Assembly: GCA_026983715.1 (NCBI GenBank)
Contig: JALSTM010000077.1
Span: 304 to 64,303 of the forward strand
Length of the DNA: 64,000 nt
Source of the DNA: Desulfobacterales bacterium
GTDB taxonomy: Bacteria; Desulfobacterota; Syntrophobacteria; B119-G9
Reading direction: 5' to 3'
Part shown: positions 10,474 through 37,804 of the stretch, piece by piece
Layout of the letters: the number at the start of each line of letters is the position of its first letter
Numbering within the stretch: position 1 is the first letter of the stretch
Notes under the pieces: model-generated
The model's database searches: none
The model's input: only the letters and a program-made list of their open reading frames with translations
Told to the model about the DNA's origin: nothing
Program-made: the position numbers and the translations under genes

Positions 10474-10612
10474 GTCATTGTGAGGTATCTGCCAGAGGCA
10501 GATGGTAATGCAATCTTCCTCGGATATCAAACTCTTGGAGATTGCTTCGTTATGCTTGCAATGACCGTGCTTTAGAATACTTCCCTATAAACATGTAGCG
10601 TTTTATCGTGTC
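10474..10612. repeat. Copy A of a MITE-like intergenic repeat: terminal inverted repeats gtcattgTgag/cttgcaatgac flanking a conserved core 'gagattgcttcg', with an adjacent 41-nt module in reverse orientation
   Basis: Direct comparison with 37512-37804: shared TIR (11 nt, 1 mismatch), shared core, and the 41-nt block 'ttagaatacttccctataaacatgtagcgttttatcgtgtc' is the reverse complement of 37764-37804. Confidence 0.6.
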
Positions 10613-11066
10613 ATAATTCTTATACTACCAATGTCCGTCATAAATGAACCGCCCGCTTCGCTTAAGGCGCGAAGAACGCGAAGAAGGAAAATATTGCGGC
10701 CGGCGGGTTAACGCCGCCCACAATGCCTTGCACCCTTTCAGGGTAACAAGGGCAATGGACAACACGCATATCCTAGGAAGCGCACACAAAACACAAAGCT
10801 TCAGGCGCCAACTCAGATTGTCTGTACCAACAGCATGCCTGAAGGGCAGGCTTCTTTCCTTGAGCAGTTACACACTGCTCAAGGAAAAAACAATATCCCT
10901 TTGCGCTCTTAGCGTCTTAGCGGTTCAAACTTGGTTGCGGCTTCGCTGCCTTAGCTTTTTGGTTGAGTCAATATTTAAAAAGTGACCTATTACTTCGTAG
11001 AGGAAACCGATGATTTTGCATTCTGTGCCGGGATGTTGCAGACTGATATGAAAGTAGGTCCCAGTT

Positions 11067-12452
11067 CTAATTCGTGAACGTATCACAAGACCTGATTGCT
11101 TCCTCCAAGTTGGAGACCCCGGTTATGTGGATGCCCGATTGGGGTGGTAGGGAATGAAAATTTGCAGAGGGTAAGAGTACTCTTTCAAATCCAAGCTTTG
11201 CAGCTTCCGATACTCTAATATCTGCTCGATCAACTCCACGCACTTCGCCTACAAGACCTACTTCTCCAAAAAGTACAGTGTCTTCCGGAAATGGTTTGTC
11301 GAGGTAACAGGAAAGCAAAGCCATAACTACAGGCAAATCTATGGCCGGTTCAACTATTTTTACACCTCCTGCCACGTTTATAAAAATATCATTTCCGGCT
11401 AGGGAAATTCCAAGTTTTTTCTCCATGATGGCTATTAGCAGTGCCAGCCGATTTCCGTCAATTCCCATAGTCATTCTCCTTGGCTGGGGAAAGGAAGTTG
11501 GTGTTACAAGGCTCTGGATTTCCACCAGTATTGGTCGGGTACCTTCAATGCTGGGAACTACTACGGAACCGGAAATGTTCTTGGGGCGTTCGGAAACGAA
11601 TATGGCAGATGGATTTAATACTTCATTGAGCCCGCTGTCGGTCATTTCAAAAACACCAATTTCATTAGTTGCCCCGAAGCGATTCTTGACTGCTCTAAGT
11701 ATGCGAAAACCATGAGCACCTCCTCCTTCAAAGTAGAGTGCAGCATCTACCAAGTGCTCCAGAACCCGGGGACCAGCAATTACACCTTCCTTTGTAACAT
11801 GTCCTGCGAGAATCACGGCTATCCCGGTAATCTTAGCCATGGATAGTAAAATATTTGCACTTTCTCTGATCTGACTCAAGGAACCCGGTGGGCTTGCAGT
11901 CATTGCAGTGCGGATGGTTTGGATGGAGTCAACAGCCAGGACTGAAGGGGCCAGTTTTTCTATCATTTTGAGGATCTCTTCAAGATTGGTCTCGGTAACT
12001 ACCTTAAGATTTCTTTCCTGAATGCCTATGCGATCAGCCCTCAGCTTTACCTGCTGTAGCGATTCTTCACCTGACACATAAAGAGTCGTTAGGCCTGTTT
12101 TGCTTGCTTCTGCAAGGGCTTGAAGAAGCAAGGTAGATTTCCCGATTCCAGGATCGCCTGCAAGAAGCACAAGTGACCCCGGTACTATGCCTCCGCCTAA
12201 CACTCGGTCGAATTCACTGATACCTGTGGAGATACGGCTATCTCTTTTTACGGAGATATCGCAAATGGAAACAGGTTCCGAGGGCTGTTCCAGGAAGGAG
12301 CCGGGAATAATCCCGCGGTTCGGCCTGGGTATTTCTGTCATACAGCCCCAGCCGCCACACTCGGGACACTTTCCGAACCATTTAAGGCTTTCATGCCCGC
12401 ATTCCTGGCAAACAAAGCCTCTCACATTATTTTTGCTTGACTTTTTCTTCAT
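11067..12452 (-). CDS. radA: DNA repair protein RadA/Sms
   Basis: N-terminal C4 zinc ribbon (CQECGHESLKWFGKCPECGGWG), RecA-like Walker A 'GDPGIGKST', KNRFG motif, C-terminal Lon-like domain. Confidence 0.9.
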   Translation of the reverse strand: MKKKSSKNNVRGFVCQECGHESLKWFGKCPECGGWGCMTEIPRPNRGIIPGSFLEQPSEPVSICDISVKRDSRISTGISEFDRVLGGGIVPGSLVLLAGDPGIGKSTLLLQALAEASKTGLTTLYVSGEESLQQVKLRADRIGIQERNLKVVTETNLEEILKMIEKLAPSVLAVDSIQTIRTAMTASPPGSLSQIRESANILLSMAKITGIAVILAGHVTKEGVIAGPRVLEHLVDAALYFEGGGAHGFRILRAVKNRFGATNEIGVFEMTDSGLNEVLNPSAIFVSERPKNISGSVVVPSIEGTRPILVEIQSLVTPTSFPQPRRMTMGIDGNRLALLIAIMEKKLGISLAGNDIFINVAGGVKIVEPAIDLPVVMALLSCYLDKPFPEDTVLFGEVGLVGEVRGVDRADIRVSEAAKLGFERVLLPSANFHSLPPQSGIHITGVSNLEEAIRSCDTFTN

Positions 12453-12742
12453 GGAAACATAAAAACCAAGTTCCGGCTTGGTAGATTCAATTACCGTCAG
12501 GATGTTATTAAGAATAACTAGCTTAACTTAACACCTTTTTCCGGTGATTTTAAGCGATAAGTGATACTGCTGGATTACTTTTTCGCTTCCGATTGTGTGG
12601 GTAACAGCTTGGAATCCTCGTAATAGCGCATGCGAGAAAATTGCACGCGTCGTTGCGTTTAAATGTATTGTTTTCTACCGCCGGTTCATGTTAACATCTT
12701 GCTAAAATAAGAGCATGGAAGAGAAAAAAGGAGGTGGCAGTT

Positions 12743-13021
12743 TTGGCAACTCACAAGTCAGCAATGAAGCGAGCACGACAGAACGAACGAAGAAGATTGA
12801 GAAATAAGTCTATAAGAACCAGGGTAAAGAATGTAATAAAAAAGGTGAGGCTGGCTGTAGAGAGAAAATCTCTGGAAGAGGCACAAGAAGCGTTGAAGGA
12901 AGCGATTCCGGTGATTGATAAGGCTGCATCTAAGGGAGTTCTTCATAAAAGAAATGCAGCAAGAAAAATATCCAGGTTAACCAAAAAGGTAAACCGACTT
13001 GCAGCCAACCAGGTATCTTGA
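12743..13021 (+). CDS. rpsT: 30S ribosomal protein S20; start reassigned to the TTG at 12743 (MATHKSAMKRARQ) with RBS AAGGAGG 8 nt upstream
   Basis: Basic 92-aa protein matching the S20 N-terminal pattern (KSAxKRxRQxExRRxxN) and 'AASKGVLHKRNAARKISRL'; the tracked GTG start at 12734 overlaps the Shine-Dalgarno. Confidence 0.8.
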   Translation: MATHKSAMKRARQNERRRLRNKSIRTRVKNVIKKVRLAVERKSLEEAQEALKEAIPVIDKAASKGVLHKRNAARKISRLTKKVNRLAANQVS

Positions 13022-13071
13022 TTGTATCTAGTTTTGGGCTTGGCAGGCGTAGTGCCTTGTAGTAAAGAAAT

Positions 13072-13108
13072 CCTCCTGGTTCAAAAGCCAGGGGGATTTT
13101 GGTTTTGG
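13072..13108 (+). terminator. Rho-independent terminator after rpsT (8-bp stem cctcctgg/ccaggggg, then T-rich tract)
   Basis: Hairpin cctcctgg-ttcaaaag-ccaggggg followed by attttggttttgg; lies between convergent rpsT and the sensor-kinase gene. Confidence 0.5.
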
Positions 13109-13129
13109 ACAAAGTTCCGGGTAATTTAA

Positions 13130-14842
13130 TCAAGCAGATGGGAAATATATTCGGAAAGTAGCCCCGTTGGTTTTGCCTTCGTCCAGGGCAATTCTTCCAC
13201 CGTACTCATTAACTATTCTTCTAACAATACTCAACCCAAGTCCTGTACCCTTGGTTTTGGTGGTATAAAAGGGATCAAAAATCCTGCTGCGTATCTCTGG
13301 CGGTATTCCTGCGCCTGTATCGCTTACTATGATTTCTACTTCCGGGGTTGAGCTTTCTCCATTTATGTCCACGTTGCCAGTTTTAACGGTAAGAGTCCCT
13401 CCTTGTGGCATGGCTTCGATGGCATTGGTAAAAAGGTTCCAGAGGATTTGCTGGAGTTGTTGAGGGTCAACGGCTATCTTTAGCCCTTTTTGCGTTTCTT
13501 TGATAATTTTTATCTTGCTATTTACTTCCCAGTTACTCTTCAAAATGGTGAGAGTATCGGAAATAGTTTTGTCTACGTCAACCTCCTGTGGAGCTTTCTT
13601 CTTCGACTTGGTGAGTAGCGAAAACTCTTTCACGAGGGAATTCAAGCGCTCTATTTCCCTGGATACGATATCCATCAGGCGATTTTGCAACGGATTGAGT
13701 TTGAGTTCTTTCTTTAACATCTGTATGGAACCGCTCATGGATGCCAAAGGATTTTTGATTTCATGGGCTACCACCGCTGCCATTTCCCCTGCTAGCGCCA
13801 GTCGTTCCATGTGCTTTACCTGTTGTTCCATCTTTTTCAACACAGTAAGATCCTGAAAAACGAGTATGTGGCCGTATTGTTCTCCTTGGGTTCCTCTTAA
13901 TCTTGACAAGGAAAACCCTAGAAATAATTTTTTTCCGTCCCTTCTGACAAATTCCATCTCGCCTCTACTGGTTTTTGTGCGCCAATCTGACTCTAGCTTT
14001 TTAGTCCTGGGCAAGTAATTTGAAATATTTGGAAAAATATCTTCTACGGGAGTGTTCAGTAGTTTAGAGAGATGGTCTGTCCCGATGATTTCACTTGCGG
14101 CTCTATTGAAATAAATTATCCTGAAGTTGTTGTCCAAGGTTATTAAGCCACTGTTTATGCTTTGCACTATATTTTTGTTCAGCATCTCTAATTCGGCAAG
14201 GTCTTTTTGTTTCGCCTTCAATTGTACTTTGCTTTTCTTGAGCTCTTCCGTCAAATGGCTGCTTAAAAAGGCAACCAGGTAGAAGGCACTGCTGGTGACA
14301 AGGAGAGTATAGAGGTAACTACCCGAGGGTGCAGGGGAGGTATAATTTAGTTCTGGGGGGAGGATATATTTGAAAGCGCCGTAGTATTGAAGGTCAAGAA
14401 TAAGGCCGTAAAAAATGGAACTAGCCGATGCTATAATAAAGCTGCCACGCCTGGAAAGTATGGTGGCCGCTATTATTATTACAAGAATATAGCCGAAGGA
14501 AAATATACTGGTGATCCCGCCTGTGAAAAGAATAATCAAAGATACAAATACCGTATCGAAAAGGAGCTGCCCGTAAGCGAAGAGTACGGGATTCTTAACG
14601 TATTTCAGGTAAAGCGAAAAAATAGCTGTGAAAAAAAAGAGTGATCCGGCGAGAAGAGACAAATAGACAACGGGAAGCGAAAAGAAAGATTTGTAACGAG
14701 ACCCCTGGAAATAAAGAGTCAGACCAAGAAGAAAAGTAGCGACAAGCAGACGAAAAAATATCAGATACTTTACCTTGACGAGAATCTTTTCTTCTTCGTG
14801 CTCTTTTCCTTCTTGGGAAAAGGCAAAATTTTTCCTGGTCAT
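13130..14842 (-). CDS. Membrane sensor histidine kinase (PilS-like position downstream of pilB-pilC): multi-TM N-terminus, PAS, HisKA, HATPase_c
   Basis: About 6 TM helices in the first 200 aa; H-box 'AHEIKNPLASMSG'; N box 'NLFTNAIEAM', G boxes 'DTGAGI', 'GLGLSIV'. Confidence 0.8.
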   Translation of the reverse strand: MTRKNFAFSQEGKEHEEEKILVKVKYLIFFRLLVATFLLGLTLYFQGSRYKSFFSLPVVYLSLLAGSLFFFTAIFSLYLKYVKNPVLFAYGQLLFDTVFVSLIILFTGGITSIFSFGYILVIIIAATILSRRGSFIIASASSIFYGLILDLQYYGAFKYILPPELNYTSPAPSGSYLYTLLVTSSAFYLVAFLSSHLTEELKKSKVQLKAKQKDLAELEMLNKNIVQSINSGLITLDNNFRIIYFNRAASEIIGTDHLSKLLNTPVEDIFPNISNYLPRTKKLESDWRTKTSRGEMEFVRRDGKKLFLGFSLSRLRGTQGEQYGHILVFQDLTVLKKMEQQVKHMERLALAGEMAAVVAHEIKNPLASMSGSIQMLKKELKLNPLQNRLMDIVSREIERLNSLVKEFSLLTKSKKKAPQEVDVDKTISDTLTILKSNWEVNSKIKIIKETQKGLKIAVDPQQLQQILWNLFTNAIEAMPQGGTLTVKTGNVDINGESSTPEVEIIVSDTGAGIPPEIRSRIFDPFYTTKTKGTGLGLSIVRRIVNEYGGRIALDEGKTNGATFRIYFPSA

Positions 14843-16054
14843 TTAACCGGCTACTACTCCTGCCATCTTGAAAATTGGCAGGTACATTGAAATAACCAGA
14901 CCCCCGATAACCACCCCCAAAAATACCATCATGAAAGGTTCAAGCATGGATGTCAGAGCATCAACGGCAGCATCCACTTCTTCGTCATAATAGTCGGCTA
15001 TTTTGCCAAGCATTGCATCGAGTGCGCCGGTAGATTCCCCTACCGATATCATCTGGACAACCATGGGAGGAAATACCCCGCTATGCATCAGAGGTTCGGT
15101 AACGCTTTTACCTTCGGCCACGCTGGCTCGGGTTTCTAGTATAGCCCTTTCAATCACCTTGTTTCCGGCAGTTTTTGCAACGATATCCATGGCTTCAAGA
15201 ATGGGAACGCCGCTGCTAAGCATGGTTCCGAGGGTGCGAGTAAATTTTGCCACTGCAACCTTTCTGAGTAACATGCCGAAAACGGGCAAACGTAAAACCA
15301 GCCTGTCTGTTAAATCTCGCCCCTTTTCTGTAGCTCGAAACCTTTTAAAGGCAATAAAAAGTAAAATAATGCCGAGGATAAACCAGTGAAAGTAACTTCT
15401 GACCGTATTGCTGACATTTATAACAAACTGGGTCGGAGCAGGAAGAGCTGCGCCGAAATCTGCAAACATCTTGGAAAAAACAGGGATGACAAAGATAAGA
15501 ATAACAGCCGTTACAAGGACGGCAATTATCGTTACTATGGCAGGATAGGTCATTGCCCCCTTTACCTTTTTCTTCAAGGCGGCAATTTTTTCCATGTATG
15601 CTGCCAACCGGTTTAAAATTACATCAAGAATACCACCCACTTCCCCTGCCGCAACGAGATTGATGGTAAGTTCGTCAAATATCTGAGGGTGTTTTTTAAG
15701 AGCGTCAGCAAAGGTAGAACCTTCTTCAACGTCTTTCTGCACCTGTTTGAGAATTGTTTTGAATGTCCTGTTAGTCTGCTGTTCCTGGAGAATCTGCAAT
15801 CCCTGGACTAGCGGGAGTCCAGCGTCGATCATGGTTGCAAACTGGCGAATGAATACCACGATATCTTTTTCTTTTACCTTCGGTTGTAGCCATTTAACGT
15901 TTTCAAAAATATCTTTTGGCTTTGGCTTAATCTTGGTTACCGTAATATTCTGACGCCGCAAAAGGAGGCGCGCAATATTTTCGTTGTTGGCTTCTATTTC
16001 GCCACTCCTTTTGTTTCCCTTGGCATCTTTTCCTTTCCAAACATAGACAGGCAT
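14843..16054 (-). CDS. pilC: Type IV pilus assembly / T2SS platform protein PilC (GspF family)
   Basis: 403 aa, two repeated T2SSF domains, 3 TM segments; immediately downstream of pilB with an 11-nt gap. Confidence 0.85.
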   Translation of the reverse strand: MPVYVWKGKDAKGNKRSGEIEANNENIARLLLRRQNITVTKIKPKPKDIFENVKWLQPKVKEKDIVVFIRQFATMIDAGLPLVQGLQILQEQQTNRTFKTILKQVQKDVEEGSTFADALKKHPQIFDELTINLVAAGEVGGILDVILNRLAAYMEKIAALKKKVKGAMTYPAIVTIIAVLVTAVILIFVIPVFSKMFADFGAALPAPTQFVINVSNTVRSYFHWFILGIILLFIAFKRFRATEKGRDLTDRLVLRLPVFGMLLRKVAVAKFTRTLGTMLSSGVPILEAMDIVAKTAGNKVIERAILETRASVAEGKSVTEPLMHSGVFPPMVVQMISVGESTGALDAMLGKIADYYDEEVDAAVDALTSMLEPFMMVFLGVVIGGLVISMYLPIFKMAGVVAG

Positions 16055-16064
16055 TTAATCCCCC

Positions 16065-17801
16065 TTAATCCTTAACAGAACACCGGATTACTTCTTCAAT
16101 AGTAGTAATTCCTTCCTTTAATTTCAAAATTCCACTTTGTCTCAATGTTAGCATACCGAGTCTCATTGCTTCACGTTTTATTTCCGTGGTTGAAGCGCCC
16201 ACAAGGATCAATTCCTTTATTTCTTCGTAAATCGGCATGACTTCATACAAAGCTATTCTACCTTTATAGCCCGTGTTACTGCAAACCGGGCATCCGCTTC
16301 CCTTGTAGCATTTAAAGGTTCCAATGTCGTCTTCGTCTACCCCCAGGTCCAAGAGTACCTCTTCGGGGACTTCAACTTCTTCCTTGCACTGGAGGCATAC
16401 CCGCCTGGCCAATCTTTGTGCCAGGATGAGATTTACCGATGAAGACACCAAAAATGGCTCCACACCCATGTTCAACAGCCTGTTAATTGTACTGGGGGCA
16501 TCGTTGGTGTGAAGTGTGCTCAAGACCATGTGGCCAGTAAGTGCAGCTTTAATGGCAATTTCAGCGGTTTCGAAGTCTCTAATCTCTCCGACCATTATTA
16601 TATCGGGATCCTGCCTAAGAAAAGACCTCAGGGCAGCGGCAAAGGTGAGACCTATAGCTTCGTGAATTTGAACCTGGTTTATCCCGGGAAGGTTAAATTC
16701 TACCGGGTCTTCTGCGGTGGAAATGTTTTCCGTGGTTTTGTTTAACTCGGAAAGCGCACTATAGAGTGTGGTTGTTTTACCGCTTCCCGTGGGGCCCGTT
16801 ACAAGTACCATTCCGTAGGGCTTATGGATCGCTTCCTTGAATAGCTTGAGCTGTGTCTCCTCAAAGCCGAGTTTTGTCATGTCGAGCTGGAGGTTGGACT
16901 TGTCGAGCAATCTCAGAACCACTTTTTCCCCGAAAAGCGTCGGAAGTACCGATACCCGGAAGTCCATCTCCCCTCCCCGAACTCTGAGCTTGATCCGTCC
17001 GTCTTGAGGCAGGCGCCGCTCCGCAATATCAAGGCGGCTCATGATTTTAATACGGGAGATGAGGGCGTTTTTTAACTTCAAGGGGGGTTTCATTATTTCG
17101 TAAAGTACACCGTCGATCCGGAACCTAACCCGAAACATCTTCTCGTATGGTTCTATATGAATATCGCTGGCGCCTTTTTTTATGGCGTCCATCAGTATCA
17201 GGTTGACGAGTTTTACAACCGGTGCCTGTTCTGCTTCGTTTTCCACGGAGTCAAGATCAAAGTCGTCAGTCATGGAAACGACATCAATATCGTCATCTTC
17301 CATGCTTCCAATAACGTCTTCGAGAGATGTTGACGGATCAAAGTATTGCTGAATCACAGATATTATGGAACTTTCCGTGGCAACGTTTACCTGGATGTTC
17401 TTTCTCGTAAGAAACCTGATGTCGTCAATAATGAAGTGGTTGCTAGGATCCGCCATGGCAATACTTAGCGTATTGCCCTTGAGGGCTATGGGAACAAGCA
17501 AATATTTCTGGATCATGTGAGCCGGAATGAGGTCGATAATTTTCTGGTCAATGTCCAACTTGGTGGGATCAACTGCGGGCACCCCGAACTGGCGACTGAG
17601 AAACTCCATTAAGTCGGATTCGTTAATGTATCCCAGTTTTACAAGGCTAGAACCCAGAGAGGAACCGGATGTACTCTGGTCTTCCAGAGCCTTATCCAGC
17701 TGCTCCATTGAAATCAACGATTCTCTTAGTAGTAATTCGCCAAGCCTCTTGACGGATCGCGTTTCCAAAGCCCTTTTTAACCCCTTGAAATTAAGCCCCA
17801 A
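16065..17801 (-). CDS. pilB: Type IV pilus assembly ATPase PilB (GspE family) with N-terminal MshEN-type c-di-GMP-binding motif
   Basis: Walker A 'GPTGSGKTT', Asp/His boxes, tetracysteine motif (CLQC...CPVC); N-terminal 24-aa motif 'RLGELLLRESLISMEQLDKALEDQ'. Confidence 0.9.
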   Translation of the reverse strand: MGLNFKGLKRALETRSVKRLGELLLRESLISMEQLDKALEDQSTSGSSLGSSLVKLGYINESDLMEFLSRQFGVPAVDPTKLDIDQKIIDLIPAHMIQKYLLVPIALKGNTLSIAMADPSNHFIIDDIRFLTRKNIQVNVATESSIISVIQQYFDPSTSLEDVIGSMEDDDIDVVSMTDDFDLDSVENEAEQAPVVKLVNLILMDAIKKGASDIHIEPYEKMFRVRFRIDGVLYEIMKPPLKLKNALISRIKIMSRLDIAERRLPQDGRIKLRVRGGEMDFRVSVLPTLFGEKVVLRLLDKSNLQLDMTKLGFEETQLKLFKEAIHKPYGMVLVTGPTGSGKTTTLYSALSELNKTTENISTAEDPVEFNLPGINQVQIHEAIGLTFAAALRSFLRQDPDIIMVGEIRDFETAEIAIKAALTGHMVLSTLHTNDAPSTINRLLNMGVEPFLVSSSVNLILAQRLARRVCLQCKEEVEVPEEVLLDLGVDEDDIGTFKCYKGSGCPVCSNTGYKGRIALYEVMPIYEEIKELILVGASTTEIKREAMRLGMLTLRQSGILKLKEGITTIEEVIRCSVKD

Positions 17802-18058
17802 GAACTATTGCGATTATCGTTTTTAACTTAGGAAAATGGGCAATTTTTGTCAAGTCAAACTGATTTTTATCCTTTTTACAATGTGTTGTTGCAAAAACGT
17901 TTTTCATGGTTTACGATGAAATACTTCTGTTTATATTTATATATTGTTTTTGAATAAGACTTTGTGTTAGAGGTCTACTAACTATTCGTCTTATTCTTTA
18001 GTAAAGGATAGATCAAAATAGATAAATCAGGCAATATTTTCTGCTATAAGGGTGTAAC

Positions 18059-18982: not shown

Positions 18983-19115
18983 AAACCGGGATTAAGAAAT
19001 TTGTTGGAACTTATTACCTGTTATGAGCTATAGTCTGAGTATACTTCAATGCGATGATTTAAATGCGTGGTTTAAACGAGATGAAAACACGGATTATTCA
19101 GAGGAGGACGCTGAA

Positions 19116-19772: not shown

Positions 19773-19789
19773 ACTTCTTTTCCCCATAG

Positions 19790-28428: not shown

Positions 28429-31400
28429 TTAGTAACTGATTATCAGTGTTAGAAAGAATCCATCTATCTTTCTTTTGTCTACTCCCCCTGCAGTCAGTTC
28501 ACCCCGTTTATAGTAAGCAAGTAACTCCGCGCTATGGTGATCGCTTAAGTAACTGGTTCCTCCCCAGAAATACTTCCCTGATATTCCGATACCCCCCTCA
28601 ATAAAAGAACTGTCCTCCCTGTCAGGGGTGTACCATATTCCGTCTGCGATCAAGTGCGGGGTAAGAACAAATTTCGGGTATACCTTGAAGCTCCACCCTT
28701 GTCTTAATTCCCCGTACCAGAGCATCCGGTCACGATGGGGAAAGTAGTAATTGATTTCGCTGTAAAGGTACGAATAATTCCAATTATCTTTTACTGTGTT
28801 CAATTCGTACCCCCTCGACCAATCGTAGAGGCCTCTAACGAGCCAGTTATCTTCAGAGTCGTCGCCGATAGAAAAAAGCCTTTCCATTCCTACCTTGAAC
28901 TTGAGTTTTTTGAAAGGCTTGTATCTTAACCCAATGGCTCCTTGCCAGGTGTCCGAATCGGTGTCCAGGGAATCTTCCCGGAGATTTACAGTGGTTCTGG
29001 CTATCGCCTCCAGAATCCTGTAGTCCCGGAATCCTATCCTAGGTAGAACCCATGTCCCTTCGAACCCCATGGTGCCTCGGGCAAGAATGCGCTCTCCTGC
29101 TCCGAGGGTTCCTCTTTCTATCGTACCGGTATCACCCGTAACAAAAGCGTCCCAGGCGGTGAAAGAAAATTTCTTGGTAAGTGCCGTGATTTCTCTCTTA
29201 TATTTCTCCCGTTTTAGTTCTGCTTCTACTTCGCTTGCCGGACTTCCAAAACAGGTAAGAGGCAGGCAATCAATTGCTTTTTTGAACTTTTCAACCCCTT
29301 CCTCATTCTGGTATGTTTGCATGTAGAGGTATGCTAAATCTGCGTGAAGATCAACCTGGTCAGGGTCTTTCCGAAGAGATTCTTTGAAAGCTGCTATTGC
29401 TTCACGGGGTTTTCCATTTTCCTTGAGAGCATCCCCGTAAGCTGATAGGTATATACTGTTTCTGTCAAGTTCAACGGCTCTTCGGAAAGCTCGCAATGCC
29501 TCGTGCTTTTCACCCAGTTCTTTGTTTACCTTGCCGAGTTCAAACCATGTTTCTGCCCGGTTGCTTGTATTAGTCAATTCTTCCCAGAGAGTTTTTGACT
29601 TTTTGAGTTCCCCGATTTGGTGGTAACATTTGGCCAGTTCTTTTTTCCTCAATATTTGCTTGTCTCGCGACAAAGTTTCCCACGATCCGGAACGAAGAAT
29701 GCTGATAGCCTGGGCAGGCTGTCCTTTTCGAGCTTCAACAATTCCGAGGTACAGTCTTGCAGTGGATGTGTTTCTTATGGAAAGAGCTTCCCTGAGTGCT
29801 TTTTCTGCCTCTTCCAGAGCCCCTTCTTGGAGAGCGAGGTATCCACACTGTTCATAAAGCAGATAGCGTTTTTGGTCATCAAGTAAGCTAGAATCTTTTT
29901 TGCCCAACCTTAGATAATGAAGGGCTACACCAGGCTTTTTCATAAGATAGTAGCTGTTTGCTATGGCTAAAAGTATTTCCGGGCCCTTTTTCATCCTATA
30001 AGCTTCAAGAAAATGTTCTATTGCTTCCTCGTGTAAACCCATGCCATCCAATGCATAGCCAAGGTTCAGCCTGTAACTCACGTTCTTAGGATATTTTTCT
30101 ACCAAGCGATAAAAGTAATCCCTAGCTTCCGAATATTTTGCCTGCTTTAGTTTTATGGTTCCGAGTTGCTTGAAAAGTTCGATTTTAAGCTTCCCCGAGG
30201 TGGCAAGAGTTCTAGCTCGCTCGAGGCTTTTCTCTGCTCCTTCATAGTTACGAACCTCGAACTGTGCATTTGCCATCCCAAGAAGTGCCCTTAATCGGAC
30301 TCGAGCACTCAAGCGCTTCTTGTTTAAAACGTTCCTAAATTGAGAAATGGCTTTGTTCGGTTGACCAAGGCGCGCGTAAAGGTAGCCAAGCTGGAGGTGA
30401 ATTTTCGTTGCCGTGTTCTCACGAAGGGAATTCTCAAGTGCTTTGTTAAGATGATAGAGTGCTTTTTTGGGTTCTTTCGTGTCCAAGTACAAGATGGCCA
30501 GCTCCTGGTGGGCCTCTCCTATTTTCTGTCCCTTTTTACCTGATTTCAGAATATATTCTTTAAGGAGGGGAATTGCTGTCCCGGGATTACCTGCTGCCTG
30601 GTAGCTTGTAGCGGCCATCATGAGAAGTTCATACCTTTTTTTTCCTCCTACCTCAAAAGCTTTAAGGAAATAATCTCCTGCCTTACGATGATTGCCAGTG
30701 TGGGAGTATAGAGTTGCTATTCGAGTAAGTATCTGCGGATCTTTCCCTTTAGTTTTCCTTTCTAGTTGTAGCAAAATCTCTAGTGCCCTTCGATATTTCT
30801 TCTGTTTTTCTAGGGCTACCGCCAGAGATTCCATGGCGGCAGGGCTTTTTTTAAGTTCACTGGCTTTTGAGAGATATAGCTGTGCAAGTTCTGGCTTGTT
30901 AAGTTTCAGGTAAAGCTCCCCTAGAGCCCGATTCGTTTTGTAGTTATCAGGGGCAATTTTGAGCGCATTCTTAAATGCTTCCTCCGCCTTGTCTAGTTTT
31001 CCCAGTTTTTCCTGCTCAAAGCCGAGGTACTGGTATGCAGACAACCTATCGTGTTCTGAAAGCCCAAGTTTGATCGCGTGTTCAAGAGACTCCACTGCTT
31101 CAAGGTCTTTGCCCACGGATCCCTGAAGTATCCCAAGTGCAAGGAAGTATTCCGGTTTCCGGGAAAGCGATGCTGCTTCGGCCATCTCTTCTTCAGCTTC
31201 CACGAGCTTTCCCTGTTTCTCAAGGGTTATAACAAGTTCCCTCATAACCTCGGGATCACGCTTTACTCGGAGTGCTTCCCGGTAGAACTTCTCTGCCAGT
31301 TTCAATTTACCGAGCTTGTATGCCAGGGTGCCCTTTTTTCGGGCAATTTTTACACGTCTTTCATTGTTCGCCGGTGGTAAAGTCACGGAATTAAGAATTT

Positions 31401-32220
31401 TAAAGGCCTCTTCGAAATACCCTTCCTTTTCAAGGTAGGTTACAAGAATCAACCTGGTATCTAGAGCCGGGTTTAATTCTATGCTTTTCTTAATCAACTT
31501 GATTGCCCTTTTGGTTTCTCCAAGGGAGTCCGCCATGACGGCAATCTTTTTAAGGGCAATGGGATCCATGGAATATTTTAAAGCAAGATGCGACAACTTG
31601 GAAATTGCCAAATCTTTTTGAGATGTGGCGGCAAGAGCTTTGATCTCCAGCAAGCTAAGGTCAAGATCTTTCTCTCGTTCGGGGAGCTTTTCAAGAAGCC
31701 TAAGAATTCTCTTGTAATCAGCTTGTCTTGCGAGAATAAAAAGGGCGTTTTTGAGTGCCCTGTTCTTTGTGGTAGGCTCCCTTGCGGTCGAAACCACGTC
31801 TAAAAAATCTTTTAAGGCTGCACTTGTTTTCCCAATCTCGCTGTACGAAGTTCCCCTGCACAGAAGTGCGTTAACTTCGTGGGGATCATGGCTTAAAATG
31901 ATAGTAGCCTGGGAAATTGCCTGGTCGTATTTCTTCAAGTTGTAGTATTGGTACATCAGTGTTAGCCTTGCCCGGTCATCCAGCGGCTTAATTTTAAGGT
32001 ATTCTTTTAATTCCTTTATGGCTTCTTCATACTTTTCTTCTTTTATGAGGCGATAAGCCATGTCAAGATGCGGATAACTCTTGAACTGTTTGATTTCCCT
32101 GGATATCCATCCTCCGTTGTTCTTTTCTTTTTCCTTGGCTGACACGGAAAAAGAGACATAGACAAGGCTACTGGTTAGAAGCAGAAAAAAGACCCAAAAT
32201 ATTTTTAAATGCTTATTCAT
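28429..32220 (-). CDS. NfrA/PgaA/BcsC-like outer-membrane exopolysaccharide export protein: signal peptide, very long TPR array, C-terminal beta-barrel
   Basis: 1263 aa; many TPR units; last ~300 aa are Gly/aromatic-rich alternating strands ending in aromatic residue '...LTLIISY'; overlaps the upstream GT2 synthase gene by 8 nt. Confidence 0.7.
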   Translation of the reverse strand: MNKHLKIFWVFFLLLTSSLVYVSFSVSAKEKEKNNGGWISREIKQFKSYPHLDMAYRLIKEEKYEEAIKELKEYLKIKPLDDRARLTLMYQYYNLKKYDQAISQATIILSHDPHEVNALLCRGTSYSEIGKTSAALKDFLDVVSTAREPTTKNRALKNALFILARQADYKRILRLLEKLPEREKDLDLSLLEIKALAATSQKDLAISKLSHLALKYSMDPIALKKIAVMADSLGETKRAIKLIKKSIELNPALDTRLILVTYLEKEGYFEEAFKILNSVTLPPANNERRVKIARKKGTLAYKLGKLKLAEKFYREALRVKRDPEVMRELVITLEKQGKLVEAEEEMAEAASLSRKPEYFLALGILQGSVGKDLEAVESLEHAIKLGLSEHDRLSAYQYLGFEQEKLGKLDKAEEAFKNALKIAPDNYKTNRALGELYLKLNKPELAQLYLSKASELKKSPAAMESLAVALEKQKKYRRALEILLQLERKTKGKDPQILTRIATLYSHTGNHRKAGDYFLKAFEVGGKKRYELLMMAATSYQAAGNPGTAIPLLKEYILKSGKKGQKIGEAHQELAILYLDTKEPKKALYHLNKALENSLRENTATKIHLQLGYLYARLGQPNKAISQFRNVLNKKRLSARVRLRALLGMANAQFEVRNYEGAEKSLERARTLATSGKLKIELFKQLGTIKLKQAKYSEARDYFYRLVEKYPKNVSYRLNLGYALDGMGLHEEAIEHFLEAYRMKKGPEILLAIANSYYLMKKPGVALHYLRLGKKDSSLLDDQKRYLLYEQCGYLALQEGALEEAEKALREALSIRNTSTARLYLGIVEARKGQPAQAISILRSGSWETLSRDKQILRKKELAKCYHQIGELKKSKTLWEELTNTSNRAETWFELGKVNKELGEKHEALRAFRRAVELDRNSIYLSAYGDALKENGKPREAIAAFKESLRKDPDQVDLHADLAYLYMQTYQNEEGVEKFKKAIDCLPLTCFGSPASEVEAELKREKYKREITALTKKFSFTAWDAFVTGDTGTIERGTLGAGERILARGTMGFEGTWVLPRIGFRDYRILEAIARTTVNLREDSLDTDSDTWQGAIGLRYKPFKKLKFKVGMERLFSIGDDSEDNWLVRGLYDWSRGYELNTVKDNWNYSYLYSEINYYFPHRDRMLWYGELRQGWSFKVYPKFVLTPHLIADGIWYTPDREDSSFIEGGIGISGKYFWGGTSYLSDHHSAELLAYYKRGELTAGGVDKRKIDGFFLTLIISY

Positions 32221-34456
32221 TTTCCTGTTCCCGTATCATTTCATCAAGGTAGGATTCTGAAAGCAATCCCAGCCGAACGAGAAGTTCTCCGAATTTTGGA
32301 GTTTCGAGTTCCTGGTGTTTCAATATATGTTCTAAATCTGACCTGGTTATCAGGCCCTTTTCAACCAGATATTCACCAAACCGAACCCTCTCCACTGCTT
32401 CATCAAGGTATTCATCCAGTGCTGACTTGAGTTCCTCACGCGTTACGAGTCCTTTATTTACAAGGATTTCCCCCAGGCGCTTATATGCCTTTTTTTGCAT
32501 TCGTGCAGCTTTGCGAAGGTCTTCTTCCGCTACTTTTCCTCGCCTGAGAGCAATTTCTCCGATCCTTGACCTGGGTTGCTTTTTCGTTAATCTTTCGTAT
32601 CCTTTCCGAATAGCGAGACTTATGTCTCCATGTGTGACGAGCTTTAGCACTATGGGCTTTCCCACCTGGTTTTCCAGTTCCGATAAAACCTCCCTTGGAA
32701 GAAGGGTTTCCGTGCCTACCTCTATTGCCCCTTTACTGGAAATTCCTATAGGGAAGACGCTATATTTGATTGCGAGCCTTCTGGGGAATTTTTTAAGGAG
32801 GTCAAGCGGGGTTTTATAGGGGTCGATTTCAGCGATTTCAAGGCCAAACTGTTGTCCCAGGGCTTGGAGCAAAATGTTTTCTGATACAAATCCCATATCC
32901 AGGAGAATTTTCCCGAGAAGCTCTTCTTTTTCCTTTTGTATCATAAGGGCTTTTTCAAGTTGACCGAGGGTTATAAACCGTTTTTCTATCAAAAGGTCTC
33001 CTAGGCGCTGTCGGTAACCTCTGAGTTCTTCCTCGGTGGGATAAACGTGTTCTGTCTTCTCCCAGGGAATAATTTTTCCTGTTGCCTTGTACCTTGCGTA
33101 AATCCAGATTGCTCGAATAGTTGCGAAAAAATTTACACAGTTTGACCACGGAAGGCGAGGTATGGCCAAGAGTGCCTGTGCAGGCCCGTACATGTTCCAC
33201 ACGCAGCAAACCCTCCAAGTTAATCTCCAGCAAAGGAAAAAGAGGTTAATCAGAAGGAGAGTCCAAAGTAGTGTGCCAGGGGAAATCAAGGGAGGATAAT
33301 GGTAAGCGGAAGGGTTTTTCCACTCGTAGATAAAGAGGCCTATTATAAAAATTGCAAGCACATTTCCCAGCAGGTTAATCTGGTTGGTGATGAGAGACTT
33401 TCTATCCCGATAGAGCATAAACTTGTTCATGAAACTTCCGTACCAACCAACATAAGACCATCCCTGCAAGGCGATTCCAACGACCCAGCGGGATTTCTGT
33501 CTCACTGCATCCGTAAATCTTTTCGGAAAAAATTCCTGTACCGCTATGTACTCCTTCTTTTTTTTCTTTTGGATTTTTCCATTTCTCGGGAGCGTGATTT
33601 CTCTCTCAATGGCTTTCCTGACAAAAATCTGCTCCAGGTTAAACTCGCCCATCTCGAGACCCAGTTCGTAGTCTTCGGCGAGAGAGTGTACGTTTAGAAT
33701 TTGGCCCCTGTTCTTTTCCCGCAGTAGTTCAACGGTTCTTCTGCTAAGCGCTGTGCCGACACCGGCAGAAGGCAGTATTTTGGTTAAACTTTCCCGGACC
33801 ACGAGATCACGGGTATGGTTTTCTGCAAATTCGTCCAAGTAATGGTTTCTCGTAAACTGATACCATTCCCCTGCAATCGGTAAAACCGGAAGCTGGATCA
33901 TGTCCTTGCGAGGAATTAGGTAATTGAAAAGTTTAAGAGTCAAGGGATGTAATATGTCTTCTGCGTCTTCTATCACGAAAATCTCGAACTTCCTGTCATG
34001 TTCTTTTTCGTATACCCGGATTCCTTCAAACACCCAGTTTAGACAGTCCGCTTTGTTCGTAGGACCATTCTTAGGGCAGGTTATGCGCTCTACGTTGTCG
34101 TAATGCTCGCGGACAATATCTATTTCTTTTCTTGTTTCCGGGTCATTGGGGTAGGTGCCCACAAAGATTGTATAGTTACTATAGTTTAGGGTCCTTAATG
34201 TGTTTTCAACCATGTTCCTAATAACAGCACTTTCATCCCAACAGGGGATCAAGATTGCAACCGGTTTCTCAGGAACACCCTGCAACTGCCTTTCATCTAG
34301 TGGTTTGTACTTTTTCATCACGAAGAACTTCCTGTATAGAGTCCTAAATATCCAGTACAGATCGATGGATAGTTCCTCGATTCCGTTCCACGTAAAGACT
34401 ACTCCGCAGACTATCAGGAGTATCTTGGTAGCTAGTAGTATATAAGCCATGATCAT
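32213..34456 (-). CDS. NfrB-like inner-membrane family-2 glycosyltransferase (EPS synthase) with C-terminal GSPII_E_N/MshEN c-di-GMP-binding domain and four further tandem MshEN motifs
   Basis: N-terminal TM, GT2 core (ILIPCWDE...DAED...), 4-6 TM block, then 'RLGDLLIEKRFITLGQLEKALMIQ' plus 'RIGEIALRRGKVAEEDLRKAARMQ', 'RLGEILVNKGLVTREELKSALDEY', 'RFGEYLVEKGLITRSDLEHILKHQ', 'KFGELLVRLGLLSESYLDEMIREQ'; 747 aa versus 745 aa for E. coli NfrB. Confidence 0.75.
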   Translation of the reverse strand: MIMAYILLATKILLIVCGVVFTWNGIEELSIDLYWIFRTLYRKFFVMKKYKPLDERQLQGVPEKPVAILIPCWDESAVIRNMVENTLRTLNYSNYTIFVGTYPNDPETRKEIDIVREHYDNVERITCPKNGPTNKADCLNWVFEGIRVYEKEHDRKFEIFVIEDAEDILHPLTLKLFNYLIPRKDMIQLPVLPIAGEWYQFTRNHYLDEFAENHTRDLVVRESLTKILPSAGVGTALSRRTVELLREKNRGQILNVHSLAEDYELGLEMGEFNLEQIFVRKAIEREITLPRNGKIQKKKKKEYIAVQEFFPKRFTDAVRQKSRWVVGIALQGWSYVGWYGSFMNKFMLYRDRKSLITNQINLLGNVLAIFIIGLFIYEWKNPSAYHYPPLISPGTLLWTLLLINLFFLCWRLTWRVCCVWNMYGPAQALLAIPRLPWSNCVNFFATIRAIWIYARYKATGKIIPWEKTEHVYPTEEELRGYRQRLGDLLIEKRFITLGQLEKALMIQKEKEELLGKILLDMGFVSENILLQALGQQFGLEIAEIDPYKTPLDLLKKFPRRLAIKYSVFPIGISSKGAIEVGTETLLPREVLSELENQVGKPIVLKLVTHGDISLAIRKGYERLTKKQPRSRIGEIALRRGKVAEEDLRKAARMQKKAYKRLGEILVNKGLVTREELKSALDEYLDEAVERVRFGEYLVEKGLITRSDLEHILKHQELETPKFGELLVRLGLLSESYLDEMIREQENE

Positions 34457-35673
34457 AAATTCAATTTCAGTTTCATATTGGTTTCTGTCTTCCCAGTTCG
34501 TCGAGAAAAATCAGGAGATGAAAATTGCTCTTCAGCCTCAAGCAGGGGAGCGACTCCACGACTAAACCTTTCGATGGCAAGCCTTATGCGCCTACTTGCA
34601 TGTCCGTCACCAAAGGGGTTAGGCATATCGAAACAACGAAAACGCTTCTCGGTATCCAGAATCTTCATCACTTCTTCGACGATTCTTTTCCTGTTTCTCC
34701 CTGCCAAAACACCACGATTTTGATATATAATTTCAGGACGTTCAGTGTGATCCCTCAGTATTACTAAGGGCACGTTATAATATGTTGCCTCTTCCTGTAT
34801 TCCGCCTGAATCTGTCATTGTGAGAGTTGAGTTCTTGAGCGTGTATAACGTGTCCGGGTAATCCAAAGGTTCCAGGAGGTGAACTCTCCTGTTTGGCTCT
34901 AGAATCGATTTCACAGTTGCTCTAACCCTCGGGTTCATGTGTAGCGGGAAAATAAATTCGACATCAGATCGAAGTGAGCTTATTTCATTTATGGCATCGC
35001 AAATATTGCGGAGAGGCTGCCCCCAGGATTCCCGACGATGAGATGTTACGAGTATAATCTTATTGTTACCCTGGCTTAGATTATGGATAAATCTTTTGAT
35101 GTTCACCGATGCAAACTTCTCCATCTTTTTGATAGCATCTATGACCGGATTGCCGGTCACATAGATGGTGTCTTCAGGAATTCCTTCGGTTAAGAGGTTT
35201 TTCTTAGCTGTAAGAGTTGGTGCAAGGTGCACACTTGTAATGGTACTTATTAGCTTCCTATTTCCTTCCTCGGGATAAGGACTATACAAGTTGTGTGTAC
35301 GCAAGCCGGCTTCAACGTGAAATACTGGGATCTTGCAATAATAGGCTACAAGGGCTGAAGCGAACGCACTGGAAGTATCTCCCTGCACAAGAAAGATATC
35401 AGGTGCTAAATCCGCTATAGCAACATCCATTTTCATTGTAATTCGCGAGATAATCTGGTTGAGTGATTGTTGATGTTCCATGATTCCAAGATCTATGTCG
35501 GGGGTTATGTCAAAGACTTTTAAAATGCGTTGTAACATGTCGTTGTGTTGCCCCGTGGTTACAACAAGCGTTTGAATGTCTCCAGATTCTTTCAGGGCTT
35601 TAATTACAGGACCCAGTTTTATCGCTTCGGGCCTGGTGCCGACGGCAACAAGAATTTTTGGTAGAGTGGTCAT
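34453..35673 (-). CDS. wecB: UDP-N-acetylglucosamine 2-epimerase (non-hydrolysing), WecB/MnaA (NfrC equivalent)
   Basis: 'KILVAVGTRPEAIKLGPVIKAL', 'HVEAGLRT', 'DSGGIQEEA' motifs; 4-nt overlap (ATGA) with the downstream GT2 gene. Confidence 0.9.
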   Translation of the reverse strand: MTTLPKILVAVGTRPEAIKLGPVIKALKESGDIQTLVVTTGQHNDMLQRILKVFDITPDIDLGIMEHQQSLNQIISRITMKMDVAIADLAPDIFLVQGDTSSAFASALVAYYCKIPVFHVEAGLRTHNLYSPYPEEGNRKLISTITSVHLAPTLTAKKNLLTEGIPEDTIYVTGNPVIDAIKKMEKFASVNIKRFIHNLSQGNNKIILVTSHRRESWGQPLRNICDAINEISSLRSDVEFIFPLHMNPRVRATVKSILEPNRRVHLLEPLDYPDTLYTLKNSTLTMTDSGGIQEEATYYNVPLVILRDHTERPEIIYQNRGVLAGRNRKRIVEEVMKILDTEKRFRCFDMPNPFGDGHASRRIRLAIERFSRGVAPLLEAEEQFSSPDFSRRTGKTETNMKLKLNL

Positions 35674-36204
35674 TTGGTTTACGCGTTTTTGTCAGGAAAC
35701 AGCCTAAAATCGGGTAATAATCAGCAACGTACCATTAAGCAACGTTTGGGTAATCTCTAACGATTAATTTATTACAATACTTTTATGATTATTAATTGCC
35801 TGTTTTCGCAAAGATAATATTTTCTATTTAAATGATAAAGATTCATGTTTTCGTACACTAAACTAGCAATAATATCAAGTGATTTCGGTCAAAAGTTTTA
35901 TTATTCCACAAGCTATCCTGATTTTTAGCAAAAGGAATTATCAAAGTTAGACTTATTCGATACTTTTTTGGGGGGCCAGTGGAGACTTTCCTATTGACTA
36001 TTTTTTGTGATCCCTATATTTATACCCGGTTAGTTGAACAGATTTGATGGTCGTCAGTTAATGCCCACCAAGCCGGATACTGCCCTATGATCGGTGATAG
36101 TGAAAATAGTTATCGGGCACTGTAACCGAGTTTGCGGAGCTGTACCCTCCGGAATTTTGCCAGCTTTTGGTTATATCCAAAATTGTTTGTTTAACCGCAA
36201 ATAA

Positions 36205-36783
36205 ATGTTAGAAGCTCTTATAACATCCAAAACACGTCTCCGTGTTCTAATGCGTTTGTTCTTAAATCCTGAACAAGAGGTGTATATAAGGAAACTTGCC
36301 TCCGAGTTTGGAATATCATCAAATCTTGCAAGCGAAGAATTTCATTCGCTAAGCAAGGCGGGATACCTCGTTAGCAGAAAAGACGGAAGGCAAATATTTT
36401 ATCGAGCAAATACTAAGCACCCTCTTTTTCCGGAAATTCATTCAATGGTAAGAAAAGCCATTGGGGTTAAGCATATCGAGGAAATTATTTTGAAAAAACT
36501 GGGCAACGTTGAACAGGCTTTCGTTGTCGATGACTATGCTGAGGGAAGAGATACGGGAGTTATTGATTTGGTTATAGTTGGTGATATTAATAGAAGTAAT
36601 CTGAACAACTTGGTAGAAAAGACCGAAAGGCTCATTAAAAGAAAGATACGTTCACTAGTGCTGGATAGAAAAGAATTTTTGAACCTAAAAACATATTTTG
36701 CCGATAGGCCAAAGTTGACGCTTTACCCTTTGGGTTTTGAGTCCCTGGAGATCCCTTCTGGAGAAATCACGCTAAACGCTTAA
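36205..36783 (+). CDS. Winged-HTH (ArsR-like) regulator fused to a nucleotidyltransferase-like domain
   Basis: N-terminal wHTH (IRKLASEFGISSNLASEEFHSLSKAGYLVSRKDGRQIFYR); C-terminal 'GVIDLVIVGD' Pol-beta-like NTase signature. Confidence 0.5.
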   Translation: MLEALITSKTRLRVLMRLFLNPEQEVYIRKLASEFGISSNLASEEFHSLSKAGYLVSRKDGRQIFYRANTKHPLFPEIHSMVRKAIGVKHIEEIILKKLGNVEQAFVVDDYAEGRDTGVIDLVIVGDINRSNLNNLVEKTERLIKRKIRSLVLDRKEFLNLKTYFADRPKLTLYPLGFESLEIPSGEITLNA

Positions 36784-37511
36784 GGAGGGTTGGATTTTCG
36801 GTCTTGAGATTTGGGTGGAGAAATGAGTCTAAGTTTGCAAAATTCTTCGCTTTTCTGTGCCTTGGCGGGAGAAAGACATATGCTCCCGTAGAGACGCGGA
36901 GCTGCCGCGAATACACTAAGATAATTTAATTTATTTCGGTAAACGTTTTATTCTCGGAAATTCCTGGAAAGGCGTTAAATATACTGCTGAAGGGATATTA
37001 AAGTTTATTTAACTGGGATAAAGAGGTAAAATTTTTAGTAAAGGAATTCAATTTCAAGCTTTTATGATGTTTAAGCTATTCCGGGATGTCGTAGGAATAC
37101 CAGTGGTTTTTGGTGAAACTATCAAGAAAATCACCGCATAAATTTCCAATGTCAACATTTGACCTCGTGACCACCATGAGTAAAAAGCATGGAAAAAGAG
37201 TTTTGGATAAAGCACCCTTTGGAAACATGTCGATTCTTGAGAAGAGGGGGATTTAATTATTTTCCCGCTGAAACCAGTAAGCACAATTGGAAGGTGCAAT
37301 CCGTCTGATAAAAGGCTTTGTTAAGCTGTGTGAGATCATTCTCAGTTTGATGAGAGGAGCAAGGGAGGTCTTCTGGTTGTTTAAAACAGGAAGTGTTGAA
37401 AGAAAGCTAAAGCTTTTTACTCAACTCATTCAGGGTAAAGTTCTAAGGCAGCAAAGCCGCAACCAAAACCCAGGACAAAGATTGATGGTTTCGTAAAAAG
37501 TCCAAAAACCG

Positions 37512-37804
37512 GTCATTGCGAGGATCCCAAACCCACTTTATGACAATGTTTTCGGCTTAATTTCAAGATGTATGGTTTAAAGTGGGTGTGGGAGACGCGG
37601 CAATCTCATCAGCAAGAGATTGAGGATTAGGGATGAATCAGCTTCTGGTTTACTCCTTAATCCATCAATTCTTACCCCGGTCTTGCCCCCATAATCATTG
37701 AGATTGCTTCGCTTCGCTCGCAATGACAAAACAGGAGATTTTTTGCGATACTGTCAGGATTAAGACACGCTAAAGCGTTACATGTTTATAGGGAAGTATT
37801 CTAA
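37512..37804. repeat. Copy B of the MITE-like intergenic repeat (TIR gtcattgCgag/ctcgcaatgac, core 'gagattgcttcg', 41-nt module in forward orientation), longer than copy A
   Basis: See copy A; 37764-37804 'gacacgctaaagcgttacatgtttatagggaagtattctaa' is the reverse complement of 10572-10612 (about 36/41 identical). Confidence 0.6.

Follow-up and report, generated by a model that had tools for sequence, protein, structure and literature searches.

The window analysed here, a stretch of 64,000 nucleotides of Desulfobacterales DNA (contig JALSTM010000077.1 of assembly GCA_026983715.1), probably holds two non-autonomous copies, A and B, of a transposable-element family that we name E, and this judgement takes in the mechanism proposed below. 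Copies A and B have in common just a 20-nt 5' end, GGCAGCRAAGCCGCAACCAA, and a 3' end of about 49 nt, ...ACATGTTTATAGGGAAGTATTCTAA; their interiors are unrelated and their global identity is 55%. Within the window the result is a modest one: a pair of small mobile-element relics, of which one marks the loss of surface-polysaccharide modification genes between near-identical strains. Beyond this genome, E leads to a very large unannotated protein family that is transposase-like and lies outside the Pfam and NCBIfam transposase families.

Both loci had been pointed out before from the letters of the window alone, in what we call the original prediction, as two copies of one element resembling a miniature inverted-repeat transposable element (MITE), with GTCATTGYGAG and CTYGCAATGAC as terminal inverted repeats and a 41-nt module in opposite orientations. 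We recovered all the matches on which this rested, i.e. the 11-mers, the core and the module. GTCATTGTGAG begins at 10474 and GTCATTGCGAG at 37512, and their complementary arms lie at 10555-10565 (CTTGCAATGAC) and 37717-37727 (CTCGCAATGAC). The 28-nt direct match GAGATTGCTTCG....GCTYGCAATGAC (GAGATTGCTTCG..GCAATGAC) joins 10538-10565 with 37700-37727 and occurs just twice in the 64 kb with three mismatches tolerated (0 expected in shuffles). The module at 10572-10612 is identical at 38 of 41 positions to the reverse complement of 37764-37804, which bears out the opposite orientations, and this inverted match can be extended to 49 nt (10572-10620 versus 37756-37804; 43/49 identical, 26 nt of them exact; 0 expected in 100 shuffles). 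As had been described, both loci lie in long non-coding gaps, with no open reading frame (ORF) at 10228-11066 and 36784-38173. Comparison of the k-mers of both gaps revealed a second inverted match, 10931-10954 being the reverse complement of 37443-37466 (TTGGTTGCGGCTTYGCTGCC/TTAG, the slash marking the junction here and below). The true repeated unit is thus 10572-10950 on the minus strand and 37447-37804 on the plus strand (Table 1), and the limits first proposed, 10474-10612 and 37512-37804, do not delimit a mobile unit. What looked like a single, partially inverted element is really two repeat families lying side by side or nested: the 11-mers do not terminate the unit that bears the module and belong to a second family, H, which is also found alone.

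Each window copy of E has close relatives elsewhere. Copies 97-99% identical to A occur at unrelated sites in L056 and L077, and about a dozen others, likewise at unrelated sites, match copy B at 88-95% identity. The 5' end, GGCAGCGAAGCC..., bears no relation to the reverse complement of the 3' end, TTAGAATACTTCC..., so E has no terminal inverted repeats. Folded as single-stranded DNA, both copies are strongly structured (z = -4.5 for A and -4.6 for B), and the self-paired interior brings the termini together. No credible Rfam match was obtained with the whole window at the gathering threshold or with both gaps at E-values up to 1, and scans of the gaps for promoters and terminators stayed at chance level. 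The 49-nt module had also been considered as a shared promoter or NtcA-like site; this was dropped, the module being the terminus of a dispersed element.

Table 1. Features of the two loci, in window coordinates
Feature	Position	Strand	Remarks
E copy A (A-type)	10572..10950	-	379 nt, no ORF of its own; limits given by the family 5' 20-mer and 3' module
Copy A, 5' terminal 20-mer GGCAGCGAAGCCGCAACCAA	10931..10950	-	Short GC hairpin with 3-nt loop, then CAACCAA
Copy A, 3' terminal module ending ...ACATGTTTATAGGGAAGTATTCTAA	10572..10620	-	Includes the 41-nt module first described
CTAA directly 5' of copy A (TTAG on the plus strand)	10951..10954	-	Presumed target tetranucleotide
Palindrome H, copy A	10474..10565	.	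Units GTCATTGTGAGG..AATGCAATCTTC and GAGATTGCTTCG..CTTGCAATGAC, inverted; 6 nt beyond the 3' end of E copy A
E copy B (B-type)	37447..37804	+	358 nt, no ORF; edges are the breakpoints versus the ENA strain
Copy B, 5' terminal 20-mer GGCAGCAAAGCCGCAACCAA	37447..37466	+	
Copy B, 3' terminal module	37756..37804	+	
CTAA directly 5' of copy B	37443..37446	+	Left breakpoint of the strain polymorphism; homology of L002 and L003 ends at 37446
Palindrome H within copy B	37512..37727	.	GTCATTGCGAG ... CTCGCAATGAC with nested hairpins; 11-nt arms, 100% complementary
Remnant of a gene 3' end, 13 nt	37805..37817	+	Gene intact in the sister strain; stop TGA at 37815-37817

Copies of E outside the window were obtained by scanning other sequence collections. 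Among 185,579 species genomes (GTDB species representatives) the E 3' 20-mer gave a single match, L004, so this E subfamily hardly occurs in that collection. L004 has a B-type copy (92-96% identity with that of the window) fused directly to an A-type copy (TTCTAA/GGCAGC) beside unrelated genes. In the JGI metagenomes the 5' 20-mer gave 118 exact matches at 113 loci. CTAA precedes 62 of the 118, and the bases farther upstream are unrelated apart from an A-rich bias (A at position -9 in 47/61). Downstream of the CTAA-flanked ends the sequence is A-type in 36 cases, B-type in 20 and of a third type in 5. No metagenome locus shares flanking DNA with the window, hence these are distinct insertion sites. 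The bulk of the CTAA-flanked ends come from one metagenome, Ga0256841, frequently at contig ends, because repeats break short-read assemblies. A scan of viral contigs yielded one match (L118), a chance hit within coding sequence. The alternative offered in the original prediction, a genome-wide family, is borne out: E and H are dispersed, multi-copy small non-coding elements (62 CTAA-flanked E ends; solitary copies of H), and the many further copies in metagenomes are at odds with its proviso that these two might be the only ones, arisen by chance local duplication.

The complete elements define the ends of the family. All 34 of them (186-1696 nt) end in the 3' module, with unrelated 3' flanks and no inverted ends, and 33 are non-coding (186-588 nt); in total the E 3' end occurs on 36 elements, including the protein-coding L024 and L125 described below. 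The 5' flank and the final four bases of the element are both CTAA in 61 of 62 cases. In L093 and L029 the 5' flank is CCAA and the element ends in CTAA, followed by TATC and TAAC, respectively, and here a duplication is clearly absent. Head-to-tail tandems with the junction TTCTAA/GGCAGC, in which the neighbours have one CTAA in common, were found in L078, L085 and L106. In the 5' GC hairpin the loop varies (GAA, AAA, GTA, TTC, TAT) and the stem is kept, whereas the stem of the 3' module measures only 3-5 bp. At 43 of 64 sites the element is co-oriented with the neighbouring ORFs, a modest bias. Furthermore, a subfamily from soil and sediment metagenomes (L014, L069, L074, L084, L104, L083) has the identical 5' 20-mer and shows ACAG in place of CTAA both in the 5' flank and in the last four bases; its 3' end is ..TTAGTGGTACAG, its interiors are nested palindromes of tandem 8-9-mers, e.g. 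CGCAGAGGA, and it forms a tandem in L083.

As to the source of these sequences, L004 and L085 are the same 2.3-kb contig (JALSTN010000204.1 = Ga0256841_1039764), composed mainly of E and H repeats typical of the window organism; it was binned into a 'Saprospiraceae' metagenome-assembled genome (MAG), a doubtful assignment that is untrustworthy for taxonomy. The nearest named homologues of the window RadA are from Desulfobacterota MAGs at 55-58% identity, and others reach 73-75%, so that the host belongs to an uncultured lineage.

One complete element encodes a protein. The L024 element (1696 nt) has the E 5' 20-mer, the 3' end of about 50 nt, the CTAA flank and a single ORF of 510 codons, and an element 95% identical to it and of the same anatomy lies at another site in L125, from a hydrothermal-vent metagenome. 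Short E copies with the identical 3' end co-occur in metagenomes with such putatively autonomous copies, e.g. L107 with L024, and the termini common to both are the relation expected of non-autonomous and autonomous partners. The 510-aa protein has no Pfam or NCBIfam match at E-values up to 1 to 10, no credible PHROG match and no match among PDB sequences, whether as a single sequence or as a profile; in particular, the Pfam and NCBIfam models of the Y1 HUH TnpA and TnpB, HUH-Y2 (IS91) and DEDD (IS110/IS1111) types do not match it. NCBIfam transposase models cover the ISfinder families; if this coverage holds, the NCBIfam miss would place the family outside the current classification. Full-text searches of the literature for the motifs GTCATTGCGAG, CTCGCAATGAC, LRFARND and GCCGCAACCAA and for new insertion sequence (IS) families returned unrelated primers and papers only, ISfinder itself not having been queried.

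Homologues of the 510-aa protein are abundant. The candidates scored comprise more than 3117 clusters at 90% identity, mainly on element-sized contigs of 1.7-2.4 kb, and the 50%-identity representatives number 11,816 at an E-value of at most 1e-3 and 1,573 at an E-value of at most 1e-30. None of the best 120 homologues has a precomputed Pfam domain, and each is unnamed or 'hypothetical'. Identical proteins recur at multiple sites, P0120 at 3 and P0089 at 8 or more. Their elements have the 5' GC hairpin followed by CAACCAAA and a 3' end of the form ...TAAG-N3-5-CTA(A), and among the P0120 and P0089 relatives neither a target duplication nor inverted ends were seen at 11 sites. In the protein-coding elements (L024, minus strand 12-140; L119-L123; L129-L138) the 5' untranslated region (UTR) before the 510-aa ORF forms a stem, GGCGYYC...GRRCGCC, which extends to the ATG and takes in the ribosome-binding site. 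Compensatory changes among subfamilies (GGCGCCC/GGAGCGCC; GGCGTTCT/AGAACGCC; GGCGCT/AGCGCC) preserve it, and it probably serves translational control of the putative transposase. At L131 (2034-2273) a P0089 insertion adjoins a short ORF with a weak Cas12f1-like/TnpB C-terminal match, two kinds of mobile element being neighbours there.

The window was compared with a strain 99.9% identical to it, represented by contigs of ENA ERZ27262647 and Logan unitigs retrieved by exact-protein look-ups, the left-flank contigs via P0247. Contig k141_235813 corresponds to window 1-10777, k141_625070 spans from about 10722 (by coordinate arithmetic) to 37446 and k141_199454 matches 37798-49271. The ERZ27262647 strain is thus collinear with the window over the 27 kb, and the inversion for which the paired repeats had been proposed as substrates was not seen in the gene order across 10.5-37.8 kb. 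The E copies, sharing just 20 + 49 nt at 55% overall identity, are poor recombination substrates. The enclosed 27 kb is ordinary chromosome and no island, as the original prediction had said. Contigs or unitigs break inside E or at its edge (10596, about 10722, 10777, 37446) because E is a repeat. Each of the three strains seen has copy A.

At the site of copy B the strains differ. Where the window has the element, the ERZ27262647 strain has at least 4.2 kb of sugar-modification genes, which encode methyltransferases, glycosyltransferases and membrane proteins. Its methyltransferase and glycosyltransferase genes follow ...GTTCTAA (L002 11243-14769), and it rejoins the window sequence at ...AAATTCTAA/CAATC (L001 1-701). 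An ORF of that strain (L001 2-721) continues past the junction at L001 701/702 into sequence common to both strains; the stop codon of this last gene lies within the common sequence, so that the window keeps a 13-nt stump of it. In its simplest history, the window allele looks like the product of an insertion plus an adjacent deletion. E would have inserted after a CTAA, and a deletion of at least 4.2 kb would have followed, between an ATTCTAA repeat and the ATTCTAA that ends the element. This deletion may be the work of the transposase or of simple microhomology.

Two further features lie next to the copies. To the right of copy B, window 37960-38100 contains two GC-rich hairpins (tctaccac...gtggtaga and gcctgcccc...ggggctggc) with no Rfam match, about 80-200 nt upstream of a PseB-like gene at 38174; they might act as a leader or in a riboswitch-like way. 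Downstream of copy A, a gene for a 572-aa protein (8509-10227, minus strand) has no NCBIfam match; a near-identical variant in the same 90%-identity cluster, P0247, is listed in a precomputed table as DUF6178 (PF19676).

An AlphaFold model of the 510-aa protein, built on 40 homologues, reached a predicted local distance difference test score (pLDDT) of 85.9 and a predicted template modelling score (pTM) of 0.74. It shows two alpha/beta saddles resembling the TATA-binding protein (TBP), at about residues 12-177 and 235-379, and, towards the C terminus, a helical region with a winged helix. Foldseek against the PDB gave nothing at an E-value of at most 1e-3 and no transposase; the informative matches were an archaeal TBP (probability 0.85) and winged-helix proteins, and against viral models TBP and TBP-like factors were matched with probabilities of 0.8-0.99. 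Over 102 members (27-46% identity) D20, R21, Y138, Y140, G147, P158, N166, E242, Y316, R324 and E326 are invariant, and all save G147 and P158 lie on predicted strands. The Rep_trans rolling-circle initiators (pT181 RepC/RepD family) are reported to use a TBP-like fold, and archaeal Rep-Arvir proteins to combine such a fold with a winged helix (PMC13107129, 2026). In view of this report, RepC was compared directly with the 510-aa protein, and by eye five short motifs align in order. The 510-aa protein does not match PF02486, or any other Pfam model. We treat the Rep_trans relationship, suggested by a predicted fold, as a lead and not as a result, and it is speculation that Y316, in a K-M-Y-[DN]-K strand beside R324-x-E326, is a candidate nucleophile.

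By analogy with IS200/IS605, strand-specific insertion after CTAA is the likeliest mechanism that we infer for E. The 510-aa protein would be the transposase, would recognise the asymmetric ends and would cut one strand after the CTAA of the 5' flank and after the terminal CTAA of the element. The element could leave as a single strand or circle with a TTCTAA-GGCAGC joint (...GTATTCTAA-GGCAGCGAAGCC...) and re-insert after another CTAA, including the CTAA that ends a resident copy, which would give tandems. Asymmetric ends, a fixed flanking tetranucleotide, no duplication where this can be judged, tandems, end-only derivatives and orientation bias are hallmarks of IS200/IS605- or IS91-like strand-specific transposition and not of DDE cut-and-paste.

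Several points weigh against this reading. An empty site was found for neither window copy, and the 510-aa gene has no copy in the window or in the retrieved Ga0256841 loci. In the CTAA subfamily, with CTAA on both sides, a 4-bp duplication is indistinguishable from a target CTAA together with the CTAA in which the element itself ends. Among the P0089 elements the conserved 5' flank, CCCAAAG, disagrees with the 3' end, CCTA, so that the rule of the same tetranucleotide at both cuts is not general. Catalysis, strand specificity and the single-stranded intermediate are inferred. As regards ancestry, hhalign of the 510-aa family against pT181 RepC profiles gave probabilities of only 0.06-0.7%, with a RepC profile that is narrow (members at least 81% identical). 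A larger reading, which we put forward tentatively and with more doubt than confidence, is that E belongs to an undescribed IS superfamily with a transposase of a new catalytic class. This would be a tyrosine nickase with a double TBP fold and a winged helix, which may be distantly related to Rep_trans and would transfer single strands to tetranucleotide-defined sites. The superfamily would comprise at least 11,800 clusters of proteins (50% identity) from soil, sediment, marine and vent metagenomes, and its subfamilies would have been re-targeted (CTAA, ACAG, CCAA) with the identical 20-nt 5' end kept.

Other explanations account for parts of these data. IS5-group elements duplicate CTAA/YTAR, and E might be a cut-and-paste MITE of an IS5-type DDE transposon that inserts at YTAR with a 4-bp CTAA duplication, a reading to which the agreement of flank and end (both CTAA in 61/62, both ACAG in the second subfamily) would be congenial. 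It is nevertheless unlikely: E lacks terminal inverted repeats, the protein of the larger element matches no DDE model in Pfam or NCBIfam and its predicted fold is not RNase-H-like, L093 and L029 combine a CCAA flank with a CTAA end, and the P0120 and P0089 relatives are free of duplications at 11 sites. The IS5-like 4-bp duplication was rejected on the absence of inverted ends together with these duplication-free relatives. We consider it quite unlikely that the copies are structural or regulatory elements maintained by the host (REP-like RNA stabilisers, terminators or small-RNA genes, for example). In favour of this are their intergenic position, their co-orientation with flanking genes, their strong single-strand structure (z about -4.5) and, in the window, the start of a gene 345-370 nt downstream of each copy. 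Against a host function stand the lack of an Rfam match and the chance level of promoter- and terminator-like sites, the unrelated interiors of A- and B-types with conservation at the termini alone, which are common to a protein-coding element, the head-to-tail tandems and the breakpoints of the strain polymorphism exactly at the element edges. Individual E copies may have been exapted.

The single MITE of the original prediction, bounded by GTCATTGYGAG and CTYGCAATGAC, with its 41-nt module flipped and the pair able to invert the 27 kb, now appears very unlikely, even though the inverted 11-mers are perfect in copy B and such palindromes form a real dispersed family. In A the module falls outside the palindrome, and in B the two are parts of one larger unit; the module occurs on 36 elements, many of them palindrome-free (A-types and the autonomous copies), and palindromes occur without it. 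The sister strain, moreover, is collinear in all three segments (1-10777, about 10722-37446 and 37798 onward). Tandem arrays with a constant TTCTAA/GGCAGC, and a copy B site that holds different 'cassettes' in two strains, would also suit non-coding integron-like cassettes recombined at a composite site of 49-nt module and 20-mer. This is the most improbable of the explanations: the junction has neither paired attC R''/R' cores nor RYYYAAC...GTTRRRY on one strand, most copies stand alone at dispersed sites between unrelated genes with no integrase seen nearby, and the alternative 'cassette' at B is without both termini and its last gene continues into the shared flank. The attC reading of the tandem junction was rejected because the paired core sites are absent.

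Family H is a second, independent dispersed repeat family, of which one member became part of the B-type elements. Its palindrome is a constant part of all B-type copies, short B-types (186-231 nt) holding a simpler version, and it is organised as inverted doublets of a unit of about 28 nt with variable nested hairpin insertions. H is found alone in related contigs (L080 4330-4474, L025 637-788, L054 1971-2057, L103 1161-1247), and (G)YAACATTTT often precedes the palindromes. In 6 of the 34 complete elements H lies within 20 nt of the E 3' end, in 3 of them with the spacer AGCAC[G/A] or AGCAGA; this placement, like that at copy A and with the same spacers, occurs in L045 and L079. E and H are therefore associated with each other. 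Units of the GTCATTGCGAG type and pseudo-ORFs of the 'RSRNQ / TEDTE' type may be widespread. Isolated exact or one-mismatch matches to GTCATTGYGAG at window 34814, 29500 and 33902 fall within coding genes without partner motifs and appear chance-like.

If the 510-aa family is confirmed as a transposase of this kind, a new enzyme type would be added to the short list of transposition chemistries. It would also explain the recurring 1.7-2.4 kb 'hypothetical protein' contigs and the repeat-broken environmental assemblies, and would account for nested-palindrome repeat families that are called as spurious small ORFs. Enzymes that read short programmable single-strand motifs have practical interest as well.

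Compared with known systems, H resembles the RAYT-mobilised REP/REPIN elements in being made of short inverted doublets with a spacer, dispersed and intergenic, in its nested hairpin variation and in the frequency with which such elements are neighbours or targets of other insertion elements; it differs by having no GTAG-type 5' motif. E has in common with classical MITEs that it is small, non-coding, multi-copy, associated with an AT target and prone to break short-read assemblies, and that its termini recur on a larger protein-coding element whose ORF would be the transposase, whereas it has neither terminal inverted repeats nor a demonstrable target-site duplication. From IS110/IS1111 it is set apart by the absence of a DEDD match and of a long target, upstream conservation being confined to 4 nt and an A-rich bias. 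The 510-aa family differs from Rep_trans (PF02486; pT181 RepC/RepD) and Rep-Arvir in being chromosomal and IS-like rather than devoted to plasmid or phage replication, in being about 200 residues longer and in having no detectable sequence or profile similarity; it resembles them in the predicted TBP-like core followed by a winged helix, in the invariant Tyr, Asp/Glu and Arg on beta strands and, by eye, in the order FD ... R-I-[EQ] ... [IM]-Y-[ND]-K ... R-x-E versus RepC. Unlike IS91, ISCR and Helitrons, E encodes a protein with no HUH-Y2 signature and targets CTAA rather than GTTC/CTTG; like them it has no inverted ends, no duplication where this can be judged, a tetranucleotide at one end, one large ORF, head-to-tail tandems and a deletion or rearrangement adjoining one end. 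Autonomous E lacks the defining trait of IS200/IS605, a Y1 HUH TnpA with or without TnpB; its protein is a predicted double TBP-like saddle, and the 3' hairpin is weak. In its anatomy E is nonetheless like IS200/IS605 and its palindrome-associated non-autonomous derivatives, the PATEs: the ends are asymmetric and without inverted repeats, a hairpin stands at the 5' end, insertion is directly 3' of a fixed tetranucleotide with no duplication in those subfamilies that allow a judgement, short structured derivatives retain the ends alone, their orientation is biased relative to neighbouring genes, and a 5' UTR stem lies over the ribosome-binding site of the putative transposase gene.

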